Positions 2,671-44,678 of a DNA stretch of 44,678 nucleotides are shown piece by piece. The notes beneath the pieces were generated by a model that was not told the DNA's origin, ran no database searches, and saw only the letters and a program-made list of their open reading frames with translations. The position numbers and the translations under genes were made by a program. Each line of letters opens with the position of its first letter. The first letter of the stretch is position 1. This DNA is from a virus (taxonomy: Duplodnaviria; Caudoviricetes), in IMG/VR virus record IMGVR_UViG_3300037424_001811, positions 1 to 44,678 of that record; one strand, written 5' to 3'.

Positions 2671-3487
2671 CGTCATCATCCTCCTCGGCATATACGGCCA
2701 GCAGCACCTCGGCCAGCCGTTGCATCTCGCCCGGCCCGTCGCACCACTGGACAAAGGCACGCCATTTGTCTACGGTCGGCTTGGCCGCCTGCCAGAATCC
2801 TTGCACCTTCTCCAGGTCGTCGTCCCAGGTCCAGCCCAGCGGCTCCTCCTCCATGTAGTTGGCGCAATCCAAGATTTCATTGCCGGTAAGGGCACACACC
2901 ACCCGCGCCACGTCCGGCAGCCAGCATAGTGGCTCCTCCAGCTCGGCAAACTCTTCGCCGTTCAGCCGGTCCCACAGGTCCCAGGAGTTGGCGCACCAGT
3001 CGGTGTCGATGCCGTACTCCTCGCATAAGGCCAGAAGCATCGAGCCGGACTGGTCCCAATTTGGATCAAGCAGCGCCTTCAGTAGGGCAAGCTGCGGATA
3101 CCGCTCCGGCCAGCTTTCGTCGTAGTCGCTGAAGCCAAGCACTAGCACCGGGATTTCATACAGCCAGCGGGCGAAATAATCCTGGCCTTCGTCGTCAGTC
3201 AGCAAATCCCAATCGACCTCGAACCAATCCCGCGCCTCTACGTTTTGGAGAAAGTCGCGGAAGATGTCCGACCAATGGGGCAGCTTCTTGCGCGGGTAAT
3301 CGTACACGTCAAGCATCAGTGGGCAGTGCGTTTGCAATAGCCAGAGCGTCCTGGCTAGCCGGCTGTACTCACCCAGGCAGAAGACAATCGTCTCCAGCTT
3401 AAGCGGGCGCAGCCGGCGTAGAACGTAGCGCGCGCTTAGAAGCCGAGCGGGACTTTGGGCGCCGAGACTGGTTTTAATCGCAAGCAT
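2657..3487 (-). CDS. Acidic Trp-rich hypothetical protein next to the Ubl gene (positional equivalent of PRTRC protein F)
   Basis: 276-aa ORF overlapping both neighbours; function only inferred from position. Confidence 0.65.
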   Translation of the reverse strand: MLAIKTSLGAQSPARLLSARYVLRRLRPLKLETIVFCLGEYSRLARTLWLLQTHCPLMLDVYDYPRKKLPHWSDIFRDFLQNVEARDWFEVDWDLLTDDEGQDYFARWLYEIPVLVLGFSDYDESWPERYPQLALLKALLDPNWDQSGSMLLALCEEYGIDTDWCANSWDLWDRLNGEEFAELEEPLCWLPDVARVVCALTGNEILDCANYMEEEPLGWTWDDDLEKVQGFWQAAKPTVDKWRAFVQWCDGPGEMQRLAEVLLAVYAEEDDDDGGE

Positions 3488-3876
3488 CTATCTAATGCCT
3501 CATTGGATCGTCGGGCCAGGGCGTCGGCCTGGTCAAAAGCCTGCTCAATTTCCGGACCGCGCGCGATGATCTGCTCCATCGTCGCCGACGCTTCGCCGTA
3601 GAATTGATGGAGCAGGTCGATAGCCGGCACGCGGGCCGGGGGAATAGAGAGCAGGAGGGTGATGATGGGGTGGGTCAATCCCTTCGTCCCCACCTTCTTC
3701 GCAAACGTGACCACCTTCACCCCATCATCGCCCGTCTTCGTATCCCACGTGGCCGCCGACAGCTCCGGGAACGTTTGCGCCCAGTGACTTTTGATGTCCT
3801 CCGGTTTGTAGGCGTCCTGTTCGTCCACAAACTCGACCTCGCGCCCGCCGGTCAGATATACGTATTTTGTTGGCAT
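3436..3876 (-). CDS. Prokaryotic ubiquitin-like protein (Prok_Ub / PRTRC protein C-like) with 80-aa C-terminal extension
   Basis: Residues 1-66: PEDIKSHWAQTFPELSAA...VTFAKKVGTKG matches the Prok_Ub pattern ending in GTKG; ORF continues to PLGF; AGGAG RBS. Confidence 0.82.
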   Translation of the reverse strand: MPTKYVYLTGGREVEFVDEQDAYKPEDIKSHWAQTFPELSAATWDTKTGDDGVKVVTFAKKVGTKGLTHPIITLLLSIPPARVPAIDLLHQFYGEASATMEQIIARGPEIEQAFDQADALARRSNEALDRCLRLKPVSAPKVPLGF

Positions 3877-3901: not shown

Positions 3902-4879
3902 CTATTGACTAACTTCCAACCACTCCGACGCTTCGGCCTCTGCCTCCACCGCCCGCTCCAGTTCCACCTTCGCCTTTATCGCCGCGCACACCCGCTCGGC
4001 CACATCCGCCGGCAGCGCCGACTTGGGCAGCGCCCCGTGGAGGATGGTCACCAGGGGCGGCGCGCCCGCTGGCACGCTAATGCTCAGTACCCAGGCCGCC
4101 TCGCGGACCACCGGCGGCGGGGGCAGCGGGGGGCCAGGGAGAGGCGGCGCAATTGCCGGCGCAACCGCTGCAACAGGAACGGCAGCAGGAAGCGGGGGCC
4201 GCAGATCGTTTTCAGGTTCGCCCGGTAGAGTTTGCGTTGTAGTTTCGGCGTCATCGGTTGCCTCCTCAGTGGCTTGCATCCAGGCCGGCATTGGCTCGGC
4301 TTCGGCTTCTAACACCTCCACCGGTTTTAACAACGAAGCATCAAGACCGCCTAATTTTTGCCGCAATTCCGCAACAGCCTCATCGACAATCTTGGCCTCA
4401 TCGACAATCTCCATCACCAGGGCAGGCCCCGTACTCTCAAAGCTCGCTTGCGGCGAGGTCTGCGGCGCGGGCCGATGCTCCGCCACAATCTCTTTGGCCT
4501 TCGTATGGGTGATGGCTTCGCCGGATTGAGCGCGGGCTATCGCCTCCTCGCGGGCTTCGTCGGGAGTGGAAGGGGCGGCGAGGAGGTAGAGGGCGGAGGG
4601 GGCAAAATTCAAATCGGACAAATTGTCCGTTTTAAAAGTTTCGGCCACAGACATAAATCGTCTAGCCATTCGCTCATTCCAATCAAACTCCCCTTCCAAC
4701 CACCCCCCAAAATACCCGTGCCCCAGCCGCTCCTTCACGTCAATCAGCTTCTCGCCAATCTCGATGATGTCCTGAGCCGTGCGCTTCATCAGCGCCTTGA
4801 TTTCGCTGGTGCGTTGCTGCACGACGATGCGCGTCTCGGCGTCGAGTTGTTGGTAATCGAATAAAATCAATTGGTCCAT
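3902..4879 (-). CDS. DUF3102-domain protein with Pro/Ala-rich linker
   Basis: AQDIIEIGEKLIDVKERLGHGYFGGWLEGEFDWNERMARRFMSVA...SALYLLAAPSTP. Confidence 0.85.
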   Translation of the reverse strand: MDQLILFDYQQLDAETRIVVQQRTSEIKALMKRTAQDIIEIGEKLIDVKERLGHGYFGGWLEGEFDWNERMARRFMSVAETFKTDNLSDLNFAPSALYLLAAPSTPDEAREEAIARAQSGEAITHTKAKEIVAEHRPAPQTSPQASFESTGPALVMEIVDEAKIVDEAVAELRQKLGGLDASLLKPVEVLEAEAEPMPAWMQATEEATDDAETTTQTLPGEPENDLRPPLPAAVPVAAVAPAIAPPLPGPPLPPPPVVREAAWVLSISVPAGAPPLVTILHGALPKSALPADVAERVCAAIKAKVELERAVEAEAEASEWLEVSQ

Positions 4880-5742
4880 TTCGCTCCTCCATTTGCCACC
4901 ACCTGCATGACCGCAGGGTTGGCGCTATTTAAGCCCTGCTTTATACCTTGCACCCGCTGAGCCAAGTCGGACAAGTACAGAAGCACCGGATGCTTCGGCC
5001 CCCAAATTTCCATAACTACACTCAGTAACTTGATCGAATGGGCGCTAGAATTACCGACCTTTTCAAACACAACGGCGATAATGTCATAAAGCTCGTGACA
5101 ATTTTGACATAACTGAACAGAGAATTCGTTCTCGCCCCACGTAGCCACATCGAGCAGATGCGCCCGCGTTGATAATGGATGTCGGCAACACTCGCAAGGC
5201 GTCAGTCGCTCCACCAATTTGGTGTGGCGGCGCTTCTGGCGCACATCGGACGTATCAAAACGAGGGCGCTCTACACCATCAGCCCCCAGCAATCGCTGCA
5301 ATTGCTTAATCTGCCCCTCGGCCTCTAATTCCTCACGGCAACCAGCAACGGTCTTATCAGAAGTAAGGCAAATTTGAGCCAGCCGACTATTCGACCATTC
5401 GGGATGACGGCCAATCATTCGCTTGATAATTGCCCGTTTTTCCTGCCTGGTCAGACTCTTGCCGTGCTTCAGATTATCCAAATCGGCAAATTCTGCCGCT
5501 TCTTCCCACGTTCCCTCATGTACGATAAAACGCCCAACTAGCCGGCCCGCTTGCCGGTGCGCGGCGATACGATGGAAACCAGCAACAAGCCGGTAGCATC
5601 CATCGAGCACAAATACGTGCATTGCCGGTAAGTCGTCAATATGAGCTGCGTAGTCCGTAACCACTTCCTGGTCTAGCGCCTCTTTGCGAGGGTTAAAGCC
5701 ACTATCGGTTTCGATTTCGTCAAGGCTAAGTATTTCTTCCAT
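4867..5742 (-). CDS. ParB N-terminal domain protein with HTH and C-terminal HNH-like zinc-binding domain
   Basis: FNPR, LVAGFHRIAA (ParB box), HPEWSNSRLAQIC...SDKTV (HTH), CECC...AH...N...LCQNCH. Confidence 0.8.
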   Translation of the reverse strand: MEEILSLDEIETDSGFNPRKEALDQEVVTDYAAHIDDLPAMHVFVLDGCYRLVAGFHRIAAHRQAGRLVGRFIVHEGTWEEAAEFADLDNLKHGKSLTRQEKRAIIKRMIGRHPEWSNSRLAQICLTSDKTVAGCREELEAEGQIKQLQRLLGADGVERPRFDTSDVRQKRRHTKLVERLTPCECCRHPLSTRAHLLDVATWGENEFSVQLCQNCHELYDIIAVVFEKVGNSSAHSIKLLSVVMEIWGPKHPVLLYLSDLAQRVQGIKQGLNSANPAVMQVVANGGAKWTN

Positions 5743-6242: not shown

Positions 6243-7403
6243 CTAATCGGCGTGCAAATCGCCGCCGTTTGCGTGCAATCGCGCCGGTTTTAAGTGCGCT
6301 TGCATTTGATCGGCAGGCAAAAAAAAGTTTTTAAATGCAATTGCATTTAAAACATTACTTTCAGCGGGGTTTTTAAATGCAATTGCATTTAAAACGCCAC
6401 CGTCATCCAAAACAAGGCCGCTCCGGTCAAACCATACCCGCATCAGGCTGACTGCCTCTACCTGTTGCCAGGCGGACAGATCGATGCCCAGCTCGCCCAG
6501 GAACCCGGCGTGGGCCTGCCGCGCCTCGTCGCTGAAGCGGGCTGTTTGCCAGGGGGTGAGCAGCGGCGGCCAGCGGTAAATCTGGACGGCGAAGCGGGTA
6601 TTACGCGCGGCGGTGCCGATCTGCCGGACGGCGGCCAGGCCGTGCTCGGCCAGGAGTTGGAATACGCCGGCCGACCAGTAACGGCACATCGGCCGCTCGC
6701 CGGGAAGTTCCCGGTTGCCCGGATAGCCGTAACGCCCGCAACAGTCGATGACCTCGCCGGTCTCGGCCAGCAGGGCGTGGTCGAACACGGGGCAGGGCCG
6801 CCAGCAGCCGGTGAGCTGCTGCGAGGAGCAACGGGTCAGGCGGGCCAGGTCCTTGAGCAAAACCTCCCAGACCGGCGTCCAGGCCCGATCATATTTTTTG
6901 TCGTCCAGCCGGTCGCGGATGAATTGCCACACGGCCAGAGCGCGGCTGCCGGCAAAGCGGTTGAAGGTGCTGAAATATGGCTGATAGTAGAGTGACAGGT
7001 AACGGGGATGTTTGGTCCAATTCCGGGCCAGTTGGTCGAAATGGGCCAGGTCGTCGGCGGCGGCGGCCCTCGGAATTTCCGAGGTGGCCACGGGGTCTGC
7101 GTCGCGTTCTGCCGCAGGCTCGGGCCCTGCGCTCGTCGCAACCCCATTGCCGTTGGCCTGTCCTGAGCTTGCCGAAGGGCTGTAACGGATCTCCACCGAG
7201 CGGCCGGCGACGCTTTCCGCCGTGCGCAGGAGCATGCCGTGCAGCCGGTTCTCCAGCCAATCGCGAGCGGCGGCGCTGGCCGGGTGGAGGGTGAGCACGT
7301 CACCCTGCTGGGTGGCCGTCATCCATTGAATGAGGGTCTCGTATTGAGACCGGGGCATTTGCTGCGAGAGTAACATTTTGATTTGGTCGAATAAGTCGGG
7401 CAT
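6243..7403 (-). CDS. Phage replication initiator with DnaA N-terminal-like domain
   Basis: LFDQIKMLLSQQMPRSQYETLI...ARDWLENRL resembles DnaA_N; central winged-helix-like segment; iterons in 3' end. Confidence 0.72.
   Translation of the reverse strand: MPDLFDQIKMLLSQQMPRSQYETLIQWMTATQQGDVLTLHPASAAARDWLENRLHGMLLRTAESVAGRSVEIRYSPSASSGQANGNGVATSAGPEPAAERDADPVATSEIPRAAAADDLAHFDQLARNWTKHPRYLSLYYQPYFSTFNRFAGSRALAVWQFIRDRLDDKKYDRAWTPVWEVLLKDLARLTRCSSQQLTGCWRPCPVFDHALLAETGEVIDCCGRYGYPGNRELPGERPMCRYWSAGVFQLLAEHGLAAVRQIGTAARNTRFAVQIYRWPPLLTPWQTARFSDEARQAHAGFLGELGIDLSAWQQVEAVSLMRVWFDRSGLVLDDGGVLNAIAFKNPAESNVLNAIAFKNFFLPADQMQAHLKPARLHANGGDLHAD
6327..6395. repeat. Two identical 27-bp palindromic iterons (putative replication origin)
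   Basis: gtttttaaatgcaattgcatttaaaac at 6327-6353 and 6369-6395 (42-bp period), AT-rich within a GC-rich gene. Confidence 0.8.
7158..7180 (-). repeat. REP-like short element, copy 1 (in frame, encodes PSASSGQ)
   Basis: Reverse complement gcccttcggcaagctcaggacag is 22/23 identical to 10288-10310. Confidence 0.7.
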
Positions 7404-8553: not shown

Positions 8554-8617
8554 AAGATAGCATTATTTGCCTTTGTTGTCAAGGTGTTATAGCCCAATTT
8601 TAAGGTTATTGTATAAT
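8554..8617. promoter_or_regulatory. Divergent lysis/lysogeny switch promoters
   Basis: Minus strand TTGACA(8582-8577)-17-TATCTT(8559-8554) with TG extension; plus strand TATAAT at 8612-8617 just upstream of GTG 8624. Confidence 0.7.
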
Positions 8618-10287: not shown

Positions 10288-10310
10288 GCCCTTCGACAAG
10301 CTCAGGACAG
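10288..10310 (+). repeat. REP-like short element, copy 2 (intergenic)
   Basis: gcccttcgacaagctcaggacag; inverted near-identical copy at 7158-7180. Confidence 0.7.
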
Positions 10311-10322
10311 CCCCGATTTGAT

Positions 10323-10688
10323 TTAGAGTATCCCCGCCGGGATCGGCTCGGCTTCGTTCCCGTCGCCGCCGAATTTGATCAGTAGCGCGTATTCGACGCC
10401 GTCCTCGCTCTGGCCGGTAGCCCGGCTAAACCAGACCGCCTTGCCGAACTTGCCGGACCCGGCCCGGCGGGTGAAGCGGTGACCACACCACTCGACCTCG
10501 CTCACGCCCTGGCTGTCGCGGGCGATCACGTCCGCGCCAATGATCTCCCACTTGAAGGCGGGGTAATCCCTAAGGGCGCGCCGGTAGCGGGGGCTGACCG
10601 GAGCATTGACCCGGAGCTGGTGGGAAATGGCCCGCATCAGCTCGGTTTGGGCTTTCAATTGAGCCAAAACTTCTTCCTGATAACTCAT
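10323..10688 (-). CDS. DdrB-like single-stranded DNA-binding/annealing protein
   Basis: FKWEIIGA / GHRFTRR / VWFSRA / DGVEYALLIKFGG parallel, in order, the Deinococcus DdrB motifs as recalled (FDWSLIGA / GHAYRRR / IKYSRG / IEYVSLAIFRGG). Confidence 0.62.
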   Translation of the reverse strand: MSYQEEVLAQLKAQTELMRAISHQLRVNAPVSPRYRRALRDYPAFKWEIIGADVIARDSQGVSEVEWCGHRFTRRAGSGKFGKAVWFSRATGQSEDGVEYALLIKFGGDGNEAEPIPAGIL

Positions 10689-11602: not shown

Positions 11603-11690
11603 ATTATAGCAGACTAGTCCGCCATTGTCAAGGTATTAACCTTAAAAAGCAGTAAAGTATCTTGACAATAGAATAATAGTCTGCTATCTT
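11603..11690. promoter_or_regulatory. Back-to-back sigma70 promoters with shared inverted operator-like sequence
   Basis: Minus: TTGACA(11631-26)-17-TATAAT(11608-03); plus: TTGACA(11662-67)-17-TATCTT(11685-90); both read cttgacaat-N7-tagtctgctat. Confidence 0.8.
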
Positions 11691-13224: not shown

Positions 13225-13548
13225 GTGACCACTGACCACCCGCCCCTAAAACCCCTCGCGCCCAAACCGCCCGCTGCAACCAAACAATGTCCTTATTGCG
13301 CCGAAACGATTAAGGCTGAAGCGAAGGTCTGCCGCTACTGTAACCGTGATCTAACTACGCCACCGCCGAAGCCGGAAAAGAAAAAAGACCCCGCCATCGG
13401 CCTGGCTGGGCTAATGATTATTTTATTGGGTATAGGTCTAATCTTTGTCGCAGGGGATTATGCCTTTATTCCCTGCTTAACGATGGCTACTGGCGCTGGC
13501 GTCCTTGCCTACGCTCTGGCCACCGGGAATGTGAAGCTGCTCGGCTAA
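13225..13548 (+). CDS. Zinc-ribbon membrane protein
   Basis: KQCPYCAETIKAEAKVCRYC plus two C-terminal TM helices; AAGGAG RBS. Confidence 0.8.
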   Translation: MTTDHPPLKPLAPKPPAATKQCPYCAETIKAEAKVCRYCNRDLTTPPPKPEKKKDPAIGLAGLMIILLGIGLIFVAGDYAFIPCLTMATGAGVLAYALATGNVKLLG

Positions 13549-13571
13549 ACGTCGGAAACTCCGAGGTTTAA

Positions 13572-28103: not shown

Positions 28104-28130
28104 CTAAACCTCGGAAATTCCGACGTTTCC

Positions 28131-28162
28131 CATTGACAATTGACAATTGACCATTGACAATT
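28131..28162. repeat. Heptamer tandem repeat (attgaca/attgacc)
   Basis: cattgacaattgacaattgaccattgacaatt; same unit in frame inside ThiF at 42739-42770. Confidence 0.8.
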
Positions 28163-28164
28163 CT

Positions 28165-28596
28165 TCACTTCCCCCGCCGTCCTGTCGCCAGCGCGAACAT
28201 CGTCGGCATATTCGGCGTCTCATCCGCCGGCGTGACGATATCGGCTAGCTCCGCCGTGGCCAGCGCCCGCAGTTCCGCCGCCCGCTCCGCCGGATCGTAG
28301 GTCTGCCGGCTGTAGGACATATCGCGGGTGCTCACGTTCAGCGAGGTGATGCGCACCGCCGCCGGCGCCAGCCGGGCCGCGCAAAAGTAAATCGCCGCCC
28401 GGGTGATTTTGACCTGCTCCACCGCAACAGCATTACTGGCCGCCGTCGGGTAGATGCCGACCACATCCTGGATTGCCGCCGCCTTGTAGATCGTCCGGTC
28501 CAACATCGTATCCGGGATGTCACCGCTGGTCAACTTCGTGTCCAGGGCAGCCAGGACGGCCGGGTAGTCGGTTGTGGTCAGGATTTCCCAGGGCAT
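28165..28596 (-). CDS. Head-tail connector/adaptor
   Basis: Helical 143-aa protein downstream of capsid; AAIYFCAARL. Confidence 0.6.
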   Translation of the reverse strand: MPWEILTTTDYPAVLAALDTKLTSGDIPDTMLDRTIYKAAAIQDVVGIYPTAASNAVAVEQVKITRAAIYFCAARLAPAAVRITSLNVSTRDMSYSRQTYDPAERAAELRALATAELADIVTPADETPNMPTMFALATGRRGK

Positions 28597-35203: not shown

Positions 35204-36546
35204 CCTTTCGCTGCACGCTGAGCTAAAGCCGCCTGCGGGCGGCGGTTATCTACGAAGCCGAAACGGTCCACCAGGCCATAGGCGATGGCTTTCATCGAGT
35301 GATTGTGCTCATCACGCGGCATATCGTCCGTCGCGTTCCCGTCGCGGTCGGTGGGCCGTTTATATTTTTTGTATTCCTCCAGGGTGTTTTTACAGCGGGG
35401 ATCGTGAAACAGGCGCGGGTGGCGCTGGCCGTCCGGCCCCAGCTCGCCCTGCAAAAAACTACGGTGGCGAGCAATACCATCCAGGATACCAATCTCCTGG
35501 GAGTAGGGCCGTTTGCCCGTCTCGGCCCGCCAGATTTCCTCGGCCGATTTCTCGGCGTGATGCTGCCGGCCGGCAAAATCAATGACCAGCCGGCGCACAT
35601 TCCCCCACCAGGGCCGCCGCTTGGCTATGTCGATGACCTGCTGGTGGGTGTGCATATTCAGGTAGATTTCGTCGATCAGCCACACCTCCGGCCCGTGGAA
35701 CTGGACCGCCAAAATCACATAGGCGCTGGGGTAATAGCCGGGGTCGATCCACAGATGGACCGGCTTTTCCGGGTCAGACAAACAGGGCCGCACGTGTTCG
35801 GCATAGGAAAATTCCGGGAATACCAACGCCTTGCTGGGCACGCGCCTGGCCGCTACGGTGCGCTGAAATTCGTCATCGGGGAGGATGGTCCGCAGCCGCG
35901 CGATTTCCGGGTCGTTCTCCCCGCCGGGATAGAGATGGATATTCGACCAGGCCGGCAGGCTGCACGTCTCTCCCTGCCAGGGGTTGCCCGGCGCCTGCAA
36001 TTCATCGACCAGAGCCGCATACCAACCGAAATTATCATGGAGCGTACCCGACAGGATGACCATCCCCCGCGCCCGCGTTGCCCGGCGCACAGCGGCCAAA
36101 AAAACCGAATACGAGGCAATTATCCCGGCCTCACACAGGCAAATAATATCCGGCTCCTCACCCCGGGCGATGACCGAGGCCGCCCCCCGTTCCACCGACA
36201 GGGTAACGATATGGCAGCCGGTGCGCGTCCTCATTTGCCACATCCCGTGGGCCGGCTGGCTCGCCTCGCGCGGGTCCAGCGCGCCGATAGCCGATAATTG
36301 CTCCACCAGGTACTCGAACTCTTTACGGCTGTTGTCGTAGGTTTGCCCCACCAGGTAGACCAGCCGGCACCACGGCACACACGCCGTAATCTCCGAGGCT
36401 GCCACCTGGCTTTTGCCCGCCCCCTCCGCGCCGACGATTTGCAGTACCGTCGCCGCGCTGTGGTGCACCGGCGCTTGCAGTGGCGTCGGCTCGTAGCCGA
36501 TGCGCCGGAAGGTAACGACCTTTTGAGCCACGGTAGGGAAACGCAT
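35188..36546 (-). CDS. terL: Terminase large subunit
   Basis: GAEGAGKS Walker A, ICLCEA Walker B, LSGT motif III, WIDPG nuclease Asp, DEHNHSMKA. Confidence 0.93.
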   Translation of the reverse strand: MRFPTVAQKVVTFRRIGYEPTPLQAPVHHSAATVLQIVGAEGAGKSQVAASEITACVPWCRLVYLVGQTYDNSRKEFEYLVEQLSAIGALDPREASQPAHGMWQMRTRTGCHIVTLSVERGAASVIARGEEPDIICLCEAGIIASYSVFLAAVRRATRARGMVILSGTLHDNFGWYAALVDELQAPGNPWQGETCSLPAWSNIHLYPGGENDPEIARLRTILPDDEFQRTVAARRVPSKALVFPEFSYAEHVRPCLSDPEKPVHLWIDPGYYPSAYVILAVQFHGPEVWLIDEIYLNMHTHQQVIDIAKRRPWWGNVRRLVIDFAGRQHHAEKSAEEIWRAETGKRPYSQEIGILDGIARHRSFLQGELGPDGQRHPRLFHDPRCKNTLEEYKKYKRPTDRDGNATDDMPRDEHNHSMKAIAYGLVDRFGFVDNRRPQAALAQRAAKGWNPK

Positions 36547-37073
36547 CAGGCCGCCTGCCTCAACTCGCTTAACCAGGTCTCCATCGCCGCTCGTTCGTCG
36601 TCATCCCGTTTGCCGTCCCCCCGTGGCCGGTAATCGCCGGTCATCTCCAAAAACAGCTTGCGGTCATTGTGCCCCTTCGCGTCCGGTTGCGTCGCCACCG
36701 CAATCAGCGCCTCGTACACATCCCGCCGGTGCCGCAGCAGCGGCGACGCCTGCACCCAGGCAATGGCATCGGGCACGCCCGGCAGATCGGCGTAGCTTTT
36801 CTGCTCCCATTTCCAGATGGCCCGTACACTGCACCCCAGCACATGCTCGGCCAGTTCCTGCTTTGTGGCCGGTTTGCGGCCCTTGAGCGGCTGGCCGGCC
36901 CAGGCAATATAGACCCAGATCCGCCAGTTGCGGAAATGGGGGAACTGCTCGCGGATGGCAAGGTAATCGTTCCACCAGCCGTACTGCTCCTCCTTCGGCA
37001 GCGCCAATAGTTGCCGGTATGCGCCCCGGCTGATCTGCTGCCCCTGGGTTGCGGGTGATGCCGGAAAATCCAT
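36546..37073 (-). CDS. Terminase small subunit (HTH)
   Basis: PATKQELAEHVLGCSVRAIWKW HTH; DRKLFLEMTG; immediately upstream of TerL. Confidence 0.75.
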   Translation of the reverse strand: MDFPASPATQGQQISRGAYRQLLALPKEEQYGWWNDYLAIREQFPHFRNWRIWVYIAWAGQPLKGRKPATKQELAEHVLGCSVRAIWKWEQKSYADLPGVPDAIAWVQASPLLRHRRDVYEALIAVATQPDAKGHNDRKLFLEMTGDYRPRGDGKRDDDERAAMETWLSELRQAA

Positions 37074-37646
37074 CTACTCCCCTTTGTCCAATTCCTTTTT
37101 TAGCTCGCGCAATTGCCGCCAGCCGGCAGTTGCCTGCTCCAAATTATTCAGCACGTTCAACACCCCCCTGATTTTCAGGCGGGTCCCCTCGTTCAGCGGC
37201 TCCGCCTCCAGAATGTCCAGCAGTTGCGCCCGCGCCCCGCGCACCCGCTCGATGTTGCCGTTCAGGCCGTGGATCAAATCCGCCGCTGCCTGGTTATCCT
37301 CGGCCCGCTGCCACTCGGCCCGCAGCCGGCGCCGCAGCCAGCCCACCAGCACGGCGCTCAGCAGCACGGCGATGGCCACCTGGACCGACCGGCTCGTATC
37401 ATCCAGGACGTACAGACTGTACCCCGCCACAAATATCGCCGCCAGCAACCCGGCCCGCAGGCCGCCGGTGAATGCGCCGAACACCACAAACAGGTACAGC
37501 CAGGACAGGGTGATAGCGTAGCCGAAATACCGCGCGCCCAGATGATACAGCGCGGTAAAAATCACGGTGCTCATAGACCCATAAAATCTTGGAATAGTTA
37601 GAAATTTGGTCATATTAGTTAGAAATGTTAAAATAGATGTAAGCAT
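37074..37646 (-). CDS. Multi-pass membrane protein with C-terminal coiled coil (holin candidate)
   Basis: About 4 hydrophobic segments, GGLRAGLLAA. Confidence 0.65.
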   Translation of the reverse strand: MLTSILTFLTNMTKFLTIPRFYGSMSTVIFTALYHLGARYFGYAITLSWLYLFVVFGAFTGGLRAGLLAAIFVAGYSLYVLDDTSRSVQVAIAVLLSAVLVGWLRRRLRAEWQRAEDNQAAADLIHGLNGNIERVRGARAQLLDILEAEPLNEGTRLKIRGVLNVLNNLEQATAGWRQLRELKKELDKGE

Positions 37647-37722
37647 TGCCGAGGCTCCCTTCGGTAGTGCCCAGGAGTACGGCGGGTGTTTCGAGCGCCC
37701 GCCGCACTCCGCTTGGTTTATT
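37606..37722 (+). ncRNA. Putative cis-antisense sRNA unit to ORF 37074-37646
   Basis: TTGGTC-17-TAAAAT (TG-extended); hairpin cattgccga...tcggtagtg with CTCC loop opposite the RBS; second long hairpin 37673-37710. Confidence 0.55.
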
Positions 37723-38076
37723 GATCGAACCGGCGGATTAACAAATCCGTCCGAATCTCCGTTGCTTTGGCTTCCCTGTACAATTTCTCCAATTCGGTGC
37801 GGATGTCCTGGATTTCGATGATCGTCTGCGGGTCGGTGTCGATGCCCTTGAGCGCCTGCTGCATCTCCAGGATTTGCAGCCGCCGCCCGTAGGCGATAAT
37901 CAATTGGCGGATGTGCCTGGCCTTGACATCGACAAAATTGCGGAAGTCGGCGTGGTCCTGGATGATCTCCTCCAGGTTGGCCCGCAATAGTGCGATCTGC
38001 CCCTCTTTTTTTTTAATTCAACTCGGAGCTGCTGCACCAGGCGTTCAAGCTCTTCGGCGATCTCGTTGGCATCCAT
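37718..38076 (-). CDS. Coiled-coil protein split by a -1 frameshift at A9/A AAA AAG
   Basis: MDANEIAEELERLVQQLRVELKKK joins EGQIALLRANLEEIIQ... in the -1 frame at 38005-38014; fused product ~119 aa. Confidence 0.6.
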
Positions 38077-38077
38077 A

Positions 38078-38153
38078 AAGAAAAAGCCCCAGCCGCACAA
38101 ATATGCGGCGGGGGCTGTTGAAAATTATACTATATGCGGGGTAGTGATGTCAA
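38078..38153 (-). promoter_or_regulatory. Consensus promoter immediately followed by intrinsic terminator (pR'/tR'-like late leader)
   Basis: TTGACA(38153-48)-18-TATAAT(38129-24); agcccc-cgccgca...tgcggc-tggggct + TTTTCTTT. Confidence 0.72.
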
Positions 38154-38255
38154 GCTTGTCATTCCATTCTTCGGTCGAGATTGAAACAACTCGGCCGGAA
38201 GGGGATTTTTAGGTACGGTCTGTTCCAGACAGGTCGTGAATCCAAAACTAAAAGT

Positions 38256-38945
38256 CTACCCCTTCCCATTACTTCGTATACCACTCTTCCCACTCCCCGC
38301 GCTCAATACCACCTCCGCCTCCTCCACCGACAACACCACCCCCGCCGCCCGCTCGAATTCGCGGACCAGGTCCGGCGGCGTCAACACCGGCCCCTGCCAG
38401 CGACCAGCGAACAATCGCGCCTCATCGTCTACCGACATCCACTTCGCTCCTGTTCGTGTATTCATAGATTGTTGTATTTCCCCTGGGTCAACCCCTCGCG
38501 CTATACCAATCAGCATGACCATCAAAGGGTTTAATCCGGTCACAAACATACTCCACGCAACCGCCCCCGTGTCCCCCAGCAGCAGGTCTATCCCCGTCTC
38601 TCGCCGCACACTGGTGGCCGCGAACGCCGTCACGCCGACAATGCTCCCCAGCAGGAGCATCTGGCCAACCGCCAGCACCGACCAATACACCCAGTCGGTC
38701 AGCGACTTGGGCCGCAGCCCTACCCACAGCCGCGATACATACGCCAGCGCCTTGCCCTCTAGCACAGCAAACGCCAACCCAGAGAACACCTCCACCGGCC
38801 CAAACCAGGCCCAGCCGGCCAGATTGAAGCCGATGAAAACGCCGTGGATCAACATCATCCTCAGCGCGGCCACTACAGTGGCCGCGACTAAAAGGCGCTC
38901 CACCGTGCTCTTCCCTACCAACCAGACCAAAAATGATTTACCCAT
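38256..38945 (-). CDS. Multi-pass membrane protein
   Basis: About 4 TM segments; AAGGGAG RBS. Confidence 0.75.
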   Translation of the reverse strand: MGKSFLVWLVGKSTVERLLVAATVVAALRMMLIHGVFIGFNLAGWAWFGPVEVFSGLAFAVLEGKALAYVSRLWVGLRPKSLTDWVYWSVLAVGQMLLLGSIVGVTAFAATSVRRETGIDLLLGDTGAVAWSMFVTGLNPLMVMLIGIARGVDPGEIQQSMNTRTGAKWMSVDDEARLFAGRWQGPVLTPPDLVREFERAAGVVLSVEEAEVVLSAGSGKSGIRSNGKG

Positions 38946-39019
38946 CTCAAAAATTCTCCCTTATAGTTTTCATGGCAGCTCAATCGACCACAATCCGGTT
39001 CAATCGAGCTAAATTATGA

Positions 39020-39715
39020 TCATTTCAACTCACTCGGCCTCAGTTTCTCATATTCCTCCACCCGGCCCCAGGGCTGGCCAGGTACGTAGCGCCGGCTCCG
39101 GGCGTCGTCGGTCGGATACTCGATCCCACCAACGGCTTCCAGGATATCGCAGTAGGCCATCCACAACGGCCGGCCGATTTTCCTACTCCACACCCGCTCC
39201 CCTATCGCGCTCTCTCCCGGTTGCCTTTTCGCATGCAGCGCCTCCACTTTTTGGAGCCATTGCCAGATTTCCGCCCGGTCCACCCACACCCGCATCCCGC
39301 CGCCAATCTCCACCGTCACCCACCAGCCGCGTGAGTGATAGCGCATCACGCCGCTGATGACCTCGCCATCTCCCTCCCCCCAGGCTACACGATGTTTGTC
39401 ATCCCATAGCGTCTCGATAGTGCTCTGCAACTGCCGCACGCCCCAGTCCAAATGCCAGCCGCTCCACAAGCCGGGCCGGGCATACATCCCCCGCCGCGCC
39501 CGCCGGCTGGCCCGCTCGCGGTAGACCAGGCCAATCGGCGCGAACGTCAGCACGCCCACGCCCAGCGCCAGCAGCGCCAGCCACATGCCGATGCGGTTGG
39601 TCGAGCACACCTGCGGCCAGTCCCAATCCACGTAGATGCAGGTGGCGAACAAGCCCAGCCACGCCGCCGGGATGGTGAAGATCAGGGAGGTGAGGGTGTA
39701 CTGAAAAGTTTTCAT
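39020..39715 (-). CDS. Membrane protein (2 TM) with soluble C-terminal domain
   Basis: Two N-terminal hydrophobic helices; ATGA overlap. Confidence 0.72.
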   Translation of the reverse strand: MKTFQYTLTSLIFTIPAAWLGLFATCIYVDWDWPQVCSTNRIGMWLALLALGVGVLTFAPIGLVYRERASRRARRGMYARPGLWSGWHLDWGVRQLQSTIETLWDDKHRVAWGEGDGEVISGVMRYHSRGWWVTVEIGGGMRVWVDRAEIWQWLQKVEALHAKRQPGESAIGERVWSRKIGRPLWMAYCDILEAVGGIEYPTDDARSRRYVPGQPWGRVEEYEKLRPSELK

Positions 39716-40458
39716 TTTCCTTGCTGCAATAAAAGCTGCTGCTTGACCGCCGCCACCAGCGAGCGCGGCTCAGCCAATCCGCGATTGAGATAAATCAATT
39801 TACCTTCGGCCTCACCTAGCCGCTTGTCCATATTCAATAGTGGCACGGCGGCAATTGCCTGGTTGACCCGCGTCTGCTGCTGGGCGATCCGGCCCCGGGC
39901 CTCGACTATCCGCCGGCGCAATCCCTCAGCCTGGATTAGATAAGTTTCTCGCTGGGCGCTCAAAATCCCAATCTCAGCCGCTAACGTTTCATCCTTCTGC
40001 CGTTCGTCCAGCCGATCCAACATGCTGGCGAAAGCGGGGTCATAAAAATGCTGCCCCCGCCCCCCCCCCTCACAGGCTGCTATCTGGGCCTGGAGAAAAT
40101 CACCTTGCTCCAGAAATCCAACTACCAACCGCATCAGCGTACCAGCATACATCCTCGCATCAGTCACCGCCTGCTCAATATCCCCTCGATCCTGCTCCAG
40201 CTTGGCCAGCGCATCCCTAAAGCGGTCAAAAGCCTGACTCATTTCCGGCTCTAATTTCACTGGCTTCGTCGCTAGCGCCGGGGCGATCAGACTCCAGGCC
40301 AACCACACCACCCCGGCCAGCCAGACCCACACCCCAGCATCAAGATAGCTCTGATACGCCACCGGCACCAGCCAGTACACCAACCCGTAAGCAGGCAGAG
40401 CGCCGGCCAGTAACCCGGCCAGATAAACCTTGTTTTTAGCGATTAGGACCGTTTTCAC
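39712..40458 (-). CDS. Membrane-anchored coiled-coil protein
   Basis: Two N-terminal TM helices then long heptad region; GGAGG RBS before GTG 40458. Confidence 0.75.
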   Translation of the reverse strand: MKTVLIAKNKVYLAGLLAGALPAYGLVYWLVPVAYQSYLDAGVWVWLAGVVWLAWSLIAPALATKPVKLEPEMSQAFDRFRDALAKLEQDRGDIEQAVTDARMYAGTLMRLVVGFLEQGDFLQAQIAACEGGGRGQHFYDPAFASMLDRLDERQKDETLAAEIGILSAQRETYLIQAEGLRRRIVEARGRIAQQQTRVNQAIAAVPLLNMDKRLGEAEGKLIYLNRGLAEPRSLVAAVKQQLLLQQGK

Positions 40459-40487
40459 TTTAACCTCCACAAAAACTAAGCGCCGCC

Positions 40488-40590
40488 TTGATCGTGGCAG
40501 CGCCTCATGCTAAAATGGAGACGGCTGCTGCTCGCTCAGCGGCCCGCCCTGGAAGCGGCTTTCATCCGCGACCAGGGCATTTTGATTTTT
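40488..40590 (+). ncRNA. Putative sRNA unit (promoter + 2 hairpins) convergent on the CRISPR array
   Basis: TTGATC-17-TAAAAT (TG-extended); ggctgctg/cagcggcc hairpin; gccctgg/ccagggc + ATTTTGATTTTT. Confidence 0.5.
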
Positions 40591-40609
40591 AACGCCCTCT
40601 GAATTTCCG

Positions 40610-40760
40610 AGGTTCACCCCCACGTGTGTGGGGAAAACGCGCTTGGAATAGAACCCGCCTGGCCAGAGAACGGTTCACCCCCACGTGTGTGGGGAAAACT
40701 AATAAACCACTGCCGACAGTCGCCTGTAGGTCGGTTCACCCCCACGTGTGTGGGGAAAAC
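40610..40760 (-). CRISPR. Type I-E-like CRISPR mini-array: 3 repeats, 2 spacers, no cas genes
   Basis: 29-bp GTTTTCCCCACACACGTGGGGGTGAACCG at 40732-40760, 40671-40699 and 40610-40638 (last base T); 32-nt spacers; 61-bp period. Confidence 0.93.
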
Positions 40761-40761
40761 A

Positions 40762-40785
40762 AGCACTGTAAATATTTACAGTGCT
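40762..40785. repeat. Perfect 24-bp palindrome abutting the first CRISPR repeat
   Basis: agcactgtaaatatttacagtgct. Confidence 0.9.
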
Positions 40786-40786
40786 G

Positions 40787-40966
40787 CTACCCAAACACCC
40801 GCAAAACCATCCCCACGATCACCCCCAGCCCAAACCACAGCGCCGCCCACGCCGCCCGCCGTAGCCATCGCTCCACGCGGGCCAGGCAGCCCGGCGGCTC
40901 ACTAATAGCCACTTGCAGATAGCCGCCGTCGGCGACGCGGGCCGTGGGGCGTTTAGGGTTGGACAT
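40787..40966 (-). CDS. Small membrane protein (59 aa, below ORF-track cutoff)
   Basis: Manual translation MSNPKRPTARVADGGYLQVAISEPPGCLARVERWLRRAAWAALWFGLGVIVGMVLRVFG; GGAG RBS. Confidence 0.65.
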   Translation of the reverse strand: MSNPKRPTARVADGGYLQVAISEPPGCLARVERWLRRAAWAALWFGLGVIVGMVLRVFG

Positions 40967-41171
40967 TGCGTCTCCGTCTGACTGGTTTCGGTCTGGCTTG
41001 TTGCTCTATCTGTCTCAATTCAGCCGCTTGATTTACCATCGTGTGTCGGCATACCTCCAGCGCTCCCGCCGGATTATTCCCGAATTCGGCTATAAGCACA
41101 TACATCGTTCTAATCCCAACCCCAAAGCCGTGCTCGTAAGCATCTGCAAAAGTTTGATATTTATCAGCCAC
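40953..41171 (-). CDS. Hypothetical protein
   Basis: Overlaps both neighbours in the operon. Confidence 0.6.
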   Translation of the reverse strand: MADKYQTFADAYEHGFGVGIRTMYVLIAEFGNNPAGALEVCRHTMVNQAAELRQIEQQARPKPVRRRRNVQP

Positions 41172-41616
41172 GTTGCCCCGCCTCCCATCTCGCTATAAAT
41201 TCCTTCCGCCGGGCCATCACCGCCTTACTCGCCGCCAGTACCTCCGGCAATCCCCGCCCCAGCCGCAGCGCCAGCCACAGCAACGCCTGCCGGCCCGCCG
41301 CTTCCTGCTCCGCCGGGTAATCCCGCGAGCAGACCCATAGCCGCAGGCCGTCCACACGCGGCCAGCCGGCGGCGAGGTAGACCGGACAGCGGGTGGCGTC
41401 CACCAATTGCCAGGCCACGCGCAGCTCGCCGGGGGTGGGGACGTGGCCGAGCGGCTTGATCTCCAGCCACACCTCGGCATCCATCAGCCAAAAATCGGGC
41501 CGATAGCGGATAGCGCGGGCAATGGCCGGCTCCAGGGCCTCGTACAGGTAGGGGGTGTGGAGGTGGTCCAGCAGGGCGGCCCAGGCGTATTCGTTGGGGG
41601 CGCGGTAGTGGGTCAT
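41164..41616 (-). CDS. PD-(D/E)xK-like nuclease
   Basis: E..WA..LD......YE, YRPDFWL...WLEIKP. Confidence 0.78.
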   Translation of the reverse strand: MTHYRAPNEYAWAALLDHLHTPYLYEALEPAIARAIRYRPDFWLMDAEVWLEIKPLGHVPTPGELRVAWQLVDATRCPVYLAAGWPRVDGLRLWVCSRDYPAEQEAAGRQALLWLALRLGRGLPEVLAASKAVMARRKEFIARWEAGQRG

Positions 41617-42038
41617 AACGCCTCAATCAATTCGAGTAAATTAGTGTGTATTCCACCATTAACAAATGCCATTCGATACATCAACTCCGGTTCGCCATCC
41701 GCCAATAAAATATGAAGCGGTTTTCCTGCACCAACAAAATATCCGGCTTCCAGATGAGCAGACCGCCCACACGGCAAAACCAAAACACAAGCATCCGACC
41801 ATAGCATTGCCGAAAAGTCGCTATCAAAACCACTGACAGCAATGGGGTGGCTTAGGACCGATTTGAATAATTCCGGCCTCCATTCCTTCCAATTTGGGTC
41901 AATCTCCGACCAATGAAAGCCAATGTCACCTGGTCTTGGATTTCTAAAATCATAAACCGCATGTCCCGCCTGCAATAGAGCTTTTACCACATTTGGCTGA
42001 TATTGATTGCGCCAGGAGGACGCCACATATATTTTCAC
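41613..42038 (-). CDS. Nucleoside 2-deoxyribosyltransferase-like protein
   Basis: KIYVASSWRN, GFDSDFSAMLWSDACVLVLPCGRSAHLEAGY; GTGA overlap. Confidence 0.78.
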   Translation of the reverse strand: MKIYVASSWRNQYQPNVVKALLQAGHAVYDFRNPRPGDIGFHWSEIDPNWKEWRPELFKSVLSHPIAVSGFDSDFSAMLWSDACVLVLPCGRSAHLEAGYFVGAGKPLHILLADGEPELMYRMAFVNGGIHTNLLELIEAL

Positions 42039-42256
42039 TTCCCCCTCCTCCCTCCCCGCCGCCTTCCCGCCCACGCCGCGCGGACCGCCACCGGGTCGAT
42101 GCCCTTCTCGCAAAAAAATCGCTCCGCATCCGCCGCCCATCGCCCGCCGTACAACAGGTCATTGCGCGCCCGGCGATAAATCGCCCGGTGCAGCGCCTCC
42201 CACGGGTCCTCCTCCTCCTCCAATTGCGGATAGTTGCGGTCGTCTATGTAGGTCAC
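42035..42256 (-). CDS. Hypothetical protein
   Basis: Abuts ThiF stop; AIYRRARNDL...AERFF. Confidence 0.6.
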   Translation of the reverse strand: MTYIDDRNYPQLEEEEDPWEALHRAIYRRARNDLLYGGRWAADAERFFCEKGIDPVAVRAAWAGRRRGGRRGK

Positions 42257-43357
42257 TTACTCAGCCACCTCAACAGCAACAGCGACGCCGTGGCCAGCGC
42301 CAGGCCGACGACGGTCATCGCCAGGATTATCGTCTCCATCCTCAAAACCCTCCCATACATCCGTCGCCATTTGCCAACCGCAAGCCGGACAGAAAACAAT
42401 GTCCTCCTCGCCGACTTCATCGGCCAGCACGTCGCGGCCCTCGGTCAATTCCCCACCACATTCCGGGCACACACCAGGAAAACCGCCAACCGCCTCACCA
42501 AAGGCATCCAGCATCTCCCCCACCTCGGCCCACGCATCCGGTACAGCCGCCGCCTGCCCCTCCGTAATCGCCACGCTGCGCACATTGCCGCCGCGCAGAT
42601 CGAGCCACGTCTGGTAGATGTCCAGATCGTGAGCCAGCAGCCGGTAGACATACACGCCGATCCACCCGGCCATCACCTGGTTGATCATCAGCGACTGCGC
42701 ATTGAGCGCCGTCAACTCCGCGCAACTCAGGGCCTCATCATTGACCATTGACAATTGACTATTGACAATTAACCCCGGCTCCTGCACCGCCGGCAGCGGT
42801 AGCATCACACACCGCCCTAGCAGCGGATCAATCACCGGCTCCGCCATTAGCGAGTTGCCAATCAGCACCTGGCCGGCGTGCTCGCTGTTGCCGGCGTCGA
42901 GCCACCAGGCGTTGCGATTTCGGGCAATGGCATCACCGCTAAAAAACCGAGCAATACTTTCCCGCGCGGCCGGATTATCCACGCAGCCGACGACGACTAG
43001 CAGGCCGTTGCGGGAACCGTTATACCAATTATTGAGGAGCCAATTCGAGGCAAACACTCCCACAATCGCCCCGATCTGCAATCCAAAAGCCAGGTTGTAC
43101 CGGCTGGCCAGCGCCATCGCTTTCGCCTGGCCGATCTCCGCCGGGCAGAAATTCTGCCTGCCGATATTTTTCTCCTCCACCCGGTCAGGGTCGCAGAAGA
43201 TCAGCCGCAGCTTCGGCCTATTGCTGCGCCGCGCTTCGTAGGCGAGCCGGGCGAGGTGGAGGGCGGCAAATGAGCCGGTGCCGCCGCAGCCGACGAGGAG
43301 GAGGGTGACTTCGGCGGGGTCGCCGATCTCGATGGGGATGTGGGGGACTATAATCAT
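42257..43357 (-). CDS. ThiF/E1-like adenylyltransferase (PRTRC ThiF-like) with C-terminal zinc ribbon
   Basis: LVGCGGTGS, DPDRVEEKNIGRQNF, GCVDNPAAR, WWLDAGN, LSCAE (putative catalytic Cys), QSLMIN; CPECG...CPACG. Confidence 0.92.
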   Translation of the reverse strand: MIIVPHIPIEIGDPAEVTLLLVGCGGTGSFAALHLARLAYEARRSNRPKLRLIFCDPDRVEEKNIGRQNFCPAEIGQAKAMALASRYNLAFGLQIGAIVGVFASNWLLNNWYNGSRNGLLVVVGCVDNPAARESIARFFSGDAIARNRNAWWLDAGNSEHAGQVLIGNSLMAEPVIDPLLGRCVMLPLPAVQEPGLIVNSQLSMVNDEALSCAELTALNAQSLMINQVMAGWIGVYVYRLLAHDLDIYQTWLDLRGGNVRSVAITEGQAAAVPDAWAEVGEMLDAFGEAVGGFPGVCPECGGELTEGRDVLADEVGEEDIVFCPACGWQMATDVWEGFEDGDDNPGDDRRRPGAGHGVAVAVEVAE

Positions 43358-43659
43358 CCCCCCTCCCACCCGCCGCGCTTCGGCACTCTGACCAAATCCC
43401 GGCCAAAGCGGACGAACAAACTCTCCCCATCCTCACCTTCGACCGCGCCGCTGACTCCCTGCTGTAAAAGAAGCGTCCGCTGCACCTGCACCAGCAAAGG
43501 CGTCGTCAGCCGCACCCGCTGCGGCAGTGGCTCCGCCGCCAACGGCAGCGCGGCGTAGTGGCCGTTAGGTATCAGTGTGCCGCTGATGAGCCGGGTGGTG
43601 CGTGCGGGTTTACGTTTCTGGCTAAATAAAGCCTTGAGTTGTTTCAAATTCCTGATCAT
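43354..43659 (-). CDS. Hypothetical protein
   Basis: GGAGGA RBS; ATGA overlap with ThiF. Confidence 0.6.
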   Translation of the reverse strand: MIRNLKQLKALFSQKRKPARTTRLISGTLIPNGHYAALPLAAEPLPQRVRLTTPLLVQVQRTLLLQQGVSGAVEGEDGESLFVRFGRDLVRVPKRGGWEGG

Positions 43660-43660
43660 G

Positions 43661-44635
43661 CTATTCCTCCGTATCGATTTCCTCATACGCCGCGCCCAGC
43701 CCCCCGGCCACGCGGGCGGTCAATGCCTGATCCATCTCAAACAGCGGCCTCTGCCGCACTTCGACGCGCGGCGTCTTGGCCAAATCTGGCGTAAGCCGCT
43801 TCCGGCACGGCGGCAATTTCCAAACCTTACCACCAAATACGGCGTAAAACTCGCCCGTTTTCAGTCCCAGCAAATGCCGGTGCTCGATCCGCTCCTTCAC
43901 CTGCACCGGCCTCGGGCCCATCCCCGGCGGCACGTAGCCGTTGCCCCGCCCGCCGGCGGCCTGCTGGCCAATGTTGAGTTCGGAACGCACGGCCTCGAAA
44001 TCCCGCTCTAATTGCAAAAATCCAACGATCCGCAGGTTACACTGGCTCAATACGTCCTTCTCCAAATCGCTCGGCCGCTGGGTGATGAAGACCAGGTTCA
44101 GGCCGAAGCTCCGCCCCCGCCGGGCGTATTGGTTAGTGATTTCCAGCGCCGCCACGTCCTGCTGCCGTTTCTGCGGGGCGAACATCTCCGCTTCGTCGAT
44201 GACCACAAACAGCGGCCTCGGCTGCTCCTGTTCGGTCTGCCGCCGCCATAGTTGGGTCAGCAGGTCGGTATAGATGTTTCGTTGCTCATTCAACATCAGC
44301 CCGGCCAGGTTGACCACGACGCCCGCCCCGCGCATCAGGTAGTCGATGACCTGGGGCATCCATTTGGTTTCCCAGCTCACATGCAAATGTCCATCCCGCC
44401 CGGCCACGATCACGCCGGGCAGCTCGGCCAGGCCCCGGTACTCGCCAACTTTGGGGTCGATCACCAGGAACGGCTGGCCGATAGCATGCAGCTCCTCCAA
44501 GACGACGACGGTCAGATGAGACTTGCCGCCGCCGCTGTTGGCCGCGATAGTCCAGCGGCAGCCCTGGGTTGCCCACGGTTCGGCGGATAGGTCGATTTCG
44601 AGACCGTTGCCGAAATCAATGACGGGGGAGGTCAT
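43661..44635 (-). CDS. HerA/FtsK-superfamily (DUF87-like) P-loop ATPase
   Basis: ANSGGGKS, VIDPKVGEY, VVIDEAEMFAP, RRGRSFG, ITQRPS, SQCN. Confidence 0.9.
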   Translation of the reverse strand: MTSPVIDFGNGLEIDLSAEPWATQGCRWTIAANSGGGKSHLTVVVLEELHAIGQPFLVIDPKVGEYRGLAELPGVIVAGRDGHLHVSWETKWMPQVIDYLMRGAGVVVNLAGLMLNEQRNIYTDLLTQLWRRQTEQEQPRPLFVVIDEAEMFAPQKRQQDVAALEITNQYARRGRSFGLNLVFITQRPSDLEKDVLSQCNLRIVGFLQLERDFEAVRSELNIGQQAAGGRGNGYVPPGMGPRPVQVKERIEHRHLLGLKTGEFYAVFGGKVWKLPPCRKRLTPDLAKTPRVEVRQRPLFEMDQALTARVAGGLGAAYEEIDTEE

Positions 44636-44678
44636 TTGCAGTTATACTCCAAATCATATCCGCGTCTGACATATCGCG
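44558..44678. repeat. Terminal direct repeat, right copy
   Basis: Matches 1-121 with two mismatches. Confidence 0.95.

Follow-up and report, generated by a model that had tools for sequence, protein, structure and literature searches.

The window, as we call the whole 44,678-nucleotide stretch analyzed here, is the genome of a complete temperate phage from sediment that carries a real type I-E CRISPR array with two guides and in which we detected no cas gene. The array joins an already known kind of element, the viral CRISPR mini-array, and we favor, with moderate confidence, a role in borrowed immunity, in which host Cas6e would cut the transcript into guides that steer host Cascade and Cas3. 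Because no target was found for either spacer, this function is argued from anatomy and precedent. The identity of the repeat with host I-E repeats makes hijack of host Cascade, as proposed in a preliminary description of this DNA, plausible, whereas the purpose named there, competition between phages or titration, finds no protospacer to support it.

Three 29-bp repeats (in transcript order on the minus strand, repeat 1 at 40732-40760, repeat 2 at 40671-40699 and a trailer repeat at 40610-40638), with start-to-start distances of 61 and 61 bp, alternate with two 32-nt spacers (spacer 1 at 40700-40731 and spacer 2 at 40639-40670), and this layout and both spacer sequences are as first described. 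Repeat 1 equals the I-E repeats of Anaerolineae-type hosts and repeat 2 has the same sequence, while the trailer repeat is identical over 28 bases, its sole difference in the minus-strand reading being a change of base 29 from G to T. Extra copies were sought at 61 and 122 bp to either side without result (5 to 12 of 29 bases identical), the best match of the repeat in the rest of the window is 19/29, and because an exact second copy exists for 239 of the 44,420 14-mers of the phage genome, three spaced repeats are far beyond chance. On the minus strand the repeat folds into an I-E-type hairpin of 6 to 7 bp with an 8-nt handle (an Escherichia coli I-E repeat consensus is given in the accessible part of PMC3338789). 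The 29-nt hairpin repeat, the 61-nt period and the variable base 29 are features of a type I-E array, and the assignment to this type, made in the preliminary description, is borne out by the canonical geometry and by the presence of the same repeat beside I-E cas operons in Chloroflexota genomes. The array is placed between genes, in an intergenic gap, in the sense direction.

The carrier genome is circular (∼44.6 kb, its ends overlapping by 121 nt at 98% identity) and encodes, by profile matches, a major capsid protein, portal, terminase, tape measure protein, serine integrase and helix-turn-helix (HTH) regulators. No cas family appeared among the 71, 75 and 78 open reading frames (ORFs) compared with PHROGs, Pfam and NCBIfam, at the best five families per protein, and as a positive control NCBIfam readily named the I-E cas genes of host loci; by cas-less we mean that no cas gene was detected, and strongly divergent Cas proteins may be present. 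The preliminary description of a cas-less array within an apparently complete phage genome thus agrees with the blank scans, with the terminal overlap, which supports circularity, and with the structural and integrase genes on a genome whose array is crossed by an unbroken contig.

Several other features of this genome deserve mention. A PRTRC-like prokaryotic ubiquitin set (JAB, E2 family D, ubiquitin-like, ParB-like and ThiF/E1) is spread across the leftward gene run; with a nearby HerA/FtsK-like ATPase it gives profile matches on the minus strand at 272-898, 1079-1963, 3436-3876, 4867-5742, 42257-43369 and 43661-44635, with NCBIfam PRTRC scores below the family cut-offs. A likely replication origin lies at 6286-6395, where a gene with a weak match to the DnaA N terminus contains three AT-rich palindromes spaced 41 to 42 bases apart, two of them perfect and 24 bp long and the third a partial copy. 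Two other dispersed short-repeat families (7155-7180 and 10288-10313; 28117-28176 and 42725-42784) comprise one inverted pair and one heptamer run, and a DdrB-like single-strand DNA-binding domain at 10323-10688 scores above the Pfam cut-off.

An assembly chimera of the phage with a host array is highly improbable because a single contig of the probable source run crosses the array without a break. This run, a sediment metagenome and the sole listed run with this DNA, provides a second assembly rather than a second sample. Its 12,897-nt contig, at an even depth of 10, covers 36000-41553 with 0 differences and crosses both flanks of the array, each of which is phage sequence, and so the chimeric join named in the preliminary description as a possible refutation did not appear at contig level. 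What could favor a chimera is that arrays with related repeats are common in the probable source sample: a query with the array alone matched 161 contigs, 160 of them on the repeat alone and with a related repeat (∼73% of the run read), and the summed depth on the repeat was ∼2300. Against this, the spacers show phage depth alone, at 10 and entirely from the phage's own contig, and neither spacer has a second copy in other contigs of the run (both over the same ∼73%).

We compared the repeat, with one loop base left open, with 185,579 GTDB species representatives and recovered 15 loci in 8 genomes; in viral contigs the exact repeat had 0 matches. The exact repeat is present in four of these, all Chloroflexota and mostly Anaerolineae (titled Anaerolineales, Aggregatilineales, Anaerolinea and Chloroflexota), three of which appear to share one class (class-level sets centered on each gave the same genomes). 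In three of the four, long arrays of the exact repeat lie next to type I-E cas genes, which is the match to host arrays that the preliminary description had proposed to look for. Two of these loci (L012 and L014) have cas3, cas8e, cas11, cas7e, cas5e, cas6e and cas1e adjoining the array, and the third (L011) has cas5e, cas6e, cas1e and cas2e on a cut contig; 61 nt is one of the two commonest periods in these host arrays. The phage array shares their repeat, orientation and period, but they contain 42 to 165 repeats and have leaders and cas genes. The Cas3 proteins at L012:471-4088 and L014:94-3810 have, from their predicted starts, ∼340 residues ahead of the HD domain without an NCBIfam match.

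The host is probably a member of the Anaerolineae, an assignment we make with good confidence though short of proof. A portal relative at 56% was present in 1 of 301 class genomes, on a contig that shares six head-module proteins at 39 to 64% identity and looks wholly viral, which would show binning in a MAG of the class and not integration. The closest terminase relatives are at 80 to 85% identity, and others carry a Gammaproteobacteria MAG label (76%) or a Chloroflexi label (39%). None of the 1,002 host spacers collected (522 of them first) matched the phage, the longest match being 20 nt; the terminase profile was absent from 141 class genomes, the phage capsid from five repeat-bearing genomes, and Cas7e from the three MAGs, all incomplete, that hold related phage contigs. 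Relatives of the ThiF protein (38 to 52%) occur in 6 of 301 Chloroflexota genomes, a comparison with no outgroup control that was left out of the host call.

Searches for the targets of the two spacers returned no credible protospacer. Spacer 1 had 0 matches in viral contigs, genome contigs, metagenome contigs and GenBank phages, and 0 in 401 class genomes at 3 mismatches; among the plasmid matches shown, 17 were partial (E of 3 to 9) and none covered 80% of the spacer. Spacer 2 was compared with viral contigs, phages, plasmids and class genomes. Its 5′ part had 0 matches in viral contigs, and 11 matches to its 3′ part were rejected, the best reaching 23/32 with no more than 4 of 10 seed bases matched. 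One partial match in phages (E of 3) and five in plasmids were likewise set aside, as was a 24/32 match in one of the 401 class genomes, which lies inside a long chromosomal ORF and of which 0.18 to 0.29 would be expected by chance. Within the window the best matches were 19 and 21/32, in agreement with the earlier inspection by eye, and no self-target emerged at the seed or protein level either. The phage's relatives gave no target: the best matches of the two spacers were 20 and 21/32 in 33 capsid-relative loci, 20 and 19 in five terminase-relative loci, and 21 in the related phage contig G292. Translated spacers scored no higher against phage proteins than 100 control spacers did (at least 19 of the 100 scored as high), and a BLAST of 36000-44678 against the 401 genomes was dominated by arrays and uninformative on the spacers. 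A G at repeat position 29 precedes both phage spacers, as expected of ordinary host-acquired spacers. The missing target is weak evidence, as the viruses of this community are barely sampled.

The downstream junction hints at the origin of the array. The trailer repeat is fused to a copy of a dispersed phage palindromic element (40596-40614, minus strand; other copies at 7067-7086, 13548-13568 and 28107-28127), whose first four bases are repeat positions 25 to 28 and whose fifth is the altered T. This copy is identical to that at 28107 over 14 of 14 bases, and the element was also found once, with one mismatch, in five host-class genomes. The four-base overlap, which we spotted post hoc, suggests capture by short-homology recombination, and the array was likely captured in this way from a host array rather than built by adaptation in place. 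The last base of the trailer repeat, correctly reported as altered in the preliminary description, is not a sign of decay: host arrays differ at base 29, this base derives from the PAM in the E. coli I-E system (according to the accessible part of PMC3338789), and here it starts the phage hairpin element. Among arrays with the same 28-mer, base 29 is G in 70, T in 53, A in 19 and C in 17 repeats of L012, and G in 159 of 163 repeats of L014.

At the other end, a perfect 24-bp palindrome (40762-40785; z of −4.07) lies one base upstream of repeat 1, where a leader would be, and scores as a terminator on the minus (array) strand together with the repeat's own T run; the only other perfect palindromes of at least 16 bases in the genome are two copies in the replication gene. 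No leader is present (the last 30 bases share 6 to 10 with those of five host leaders), and no array-strand promoter was found in 40300-41300. In one predicted fold (ensemble frequency 0.05) the hairpin of repeat 1 is opened by pairing with the upstream RNA. The upstream ORF (59 aa, 40787-40966, minus strand) has a hydrophobic C terminus and no family, and a single base separates its stop codon from the palindrome; the downstream ORF (252 aa, 39712-40470, minus strand) has no family and has relatives at 79% and 38% identity. An Atlas search with a 72-aa ORF gave no lead. On the plus strand at 40488-40592, two hairpins and a T-rich tail (z of −3.66) come after a promoter-like site (9/12, with TG) and may represent a 70-nt small RNA that runs toward the array tail and ends before it. 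Rfam had no match to this putative RNA and nothing at the gathering score, with three weak matches at chance level.

Both junctions bear on the view that the array is a silent passenger: a stretch of a host array, taken up recently, that is insulated by the upstream hairpin terminator and has no selected function. The absent leader, the terminator-like hairpin at repeat 1 and the resemblance of the trailer junction to short-homology recombination all favor it, as does the absence of the array from the relatives examined: of 30 capsid-relative records (from 33 loci; mostly fragments, with 4 at least 90% complete) and 5 terminase-relative records, none held an I-E pattern, such that the array is not conserved among them. 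We nevertheless consider a silent passenger unlikely, given that the repeats are undecayed, that the placement is clean, intergenic and in the sense direction, and that similar units recur in unrelated Anaerolineae phages.

These similar units are mini-arrays with the same repeat or a one-base variant in two unrelated phage lineages (L006 and L049). In L006, from an Anaerolinea MAG, two one-spacer I-E units with the exact repeat (12210-12120 and 10028-9939, minus strand) flank a phage minor head gene. One L006 unit continues at the contig end straight into an array of a different repeat, and no cas7e was found in this incomplete MAG. L049, a viral contig, has in its head module a one-spacer unit with a one-base repeat variant. 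At this site its prophage relative L009 (95% identity upstream) has a lone repeat (L009:10001-10029), compared with repeat-spacer-repeat plus 22 bases in L049 (3740-3829). In both, a strong promoter-like sequence of the head genes follows directly. The solitary repeat of L009 could be an assembly collapse.

In the reading that we prefer, borrowed immunity, the array would be transcribed by read-through from a leftward gene run. At the head of this run is a σ70-like promoter that matches the consensus at 12 of 12 positions (11603-11631, minus strand), with a second σ70-like site at 8554-8582, both identified by consensus match only. A divergent promoter pair (11603-11690) divides a short rightward run, which ends in the integrase, from the long leftward run, which wraps around the circle, reaches the array after ∼15 kb and stops before another 12/12 promoter at 38153, ahead of the packaging genes. 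Judging from the layout of temperate phages, the leftward run is probably a lytic unit, early or middle, and the guides would be made during lytic growth or induction and not in the quiet prophage. Host Cas6e would process the transcript into two 61-nt crRNAs, and these would guide the host's Cascade and Cas3 to rival phages or other mobile elements. The points against borrowed immunity are the lack of a protospacer, the lack of a promoter of its own, the terminator-like palindrome before repeat 1 and the predicted fold that opens its hairpin, together with the indirect nature of the host link, the missing Cas7e in the three incomplete MAGs and the lack of conservation in relatives.

Virus-borne CRISPR mini-arrays were reportedly the subject of work by Faure et al. 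in 2019. Published viral mini-arrays, as far as the accessible text of PMC11656645 describes them, have one or two spacers and host-identical repeats and are mostly aimed at related viruses. The phage array resembles the virus-borne cases in the available portions of PMC11656645 and PMC6858448 in having one to two spacers, no cas genes, a host-type repeat, an intergenic position and no self-target; it is leaderless like the bacterial phage mini-arrays described in PMC6858448 and unlike SPV1/SPV2 in the same source. It differs from published viral mini-arrays in being bracketed by two palindromes, in its probable host class, Anaerolineae, and in having no target found. We met no title on mini-arrays of Anaerolineae phages in the literature, a title-level result that is not proof of absence.

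Alternatively, a lytic-phase flood of nontargeting crRNAs could, in the manner of Racrs, occupy Cas6e and Cascade and thereby dilute host immunity, with the trailer adding an RNA that has the 5′ handle and lacks the terminal repeat hairpin. Like Racrs and solitary repeat units (PMC10651486, in the part accessible), the array has a host-like repeat in a phage without cas genes and could compete for Cas6 and Cas7; I-E Racrs inhibit their cognate system according to the same part of that source. Such a decoy would also fit the position of the array inside the leftward, probably lytic, run, the lack of a target and the solitary repeat that L009 holds alone at the L049 site. We nonetheless judge it fairly unlikely, because Racrs, as there described, are solitary repeats, whereas here three intact repeats enclose two full-length spacers, no promoter lies directly upstream and no acr or aca neighbor was identified; profile searches of the flanking ORFs found no HTH (Aca-like) or other family, with libraries that cover Acr proteins poorly.

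The preliminary description also raised repression of host genes, in which Cascade of the host, guided by Cracr/CreR-like partial pairing, would silence host promoters such as those of cas. Two-spacer I-E Cracr arrays, or viral crlRNAs, are known in temperate phages from the accessible part of bioRxiv 10.1101/2024.10.29.618823 (a related survey, likewise accessible in part, is 10.1101/2023.03.03.530964), and the present array is similar in these respects. The fit is otherwise poor: the tested I-E Cracr array in that source has 24- and 21-nt spacers and repeat-like units, compared with canonical 32-nt spacers and exact repeats here, and no seed match of at least 9 bases to a cas promoter or elsewhere was present in L012 and L014, which cover whole cas operons (with only 93 bases upstream of cas3 in L014) and are not the true host. 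We consider this form of repression very unlikely.

A further, distinctly unlikely possibility is that the array is gated by its two flanking hairpins, having been planted at, or grown from, the dispersed phage palindromic element, with the upstream palindrome serving as an attenuator or operator that would release the guides only at one lytic stage. If true, and taken together with L006, L009 and L049, this would mean that Anaerolineae phages repeatedly park I-E units at operon joints and that such phages alternate between two states, a lone decoy repeat and an armed array.

With borrowed immunity as the preferred reading, the target and function of the array are inferred and no current model is changed. 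The array adds a clean case to known viral CRISPR borrowing, in an uncultured sediment phage tied to a probable Anaerolineae host. The junction can still be read and gives a hint of the way in which such arrays are captured, and L009 and L049, which are close relatives, show one and the same site in its solitary and its one-spacer state.
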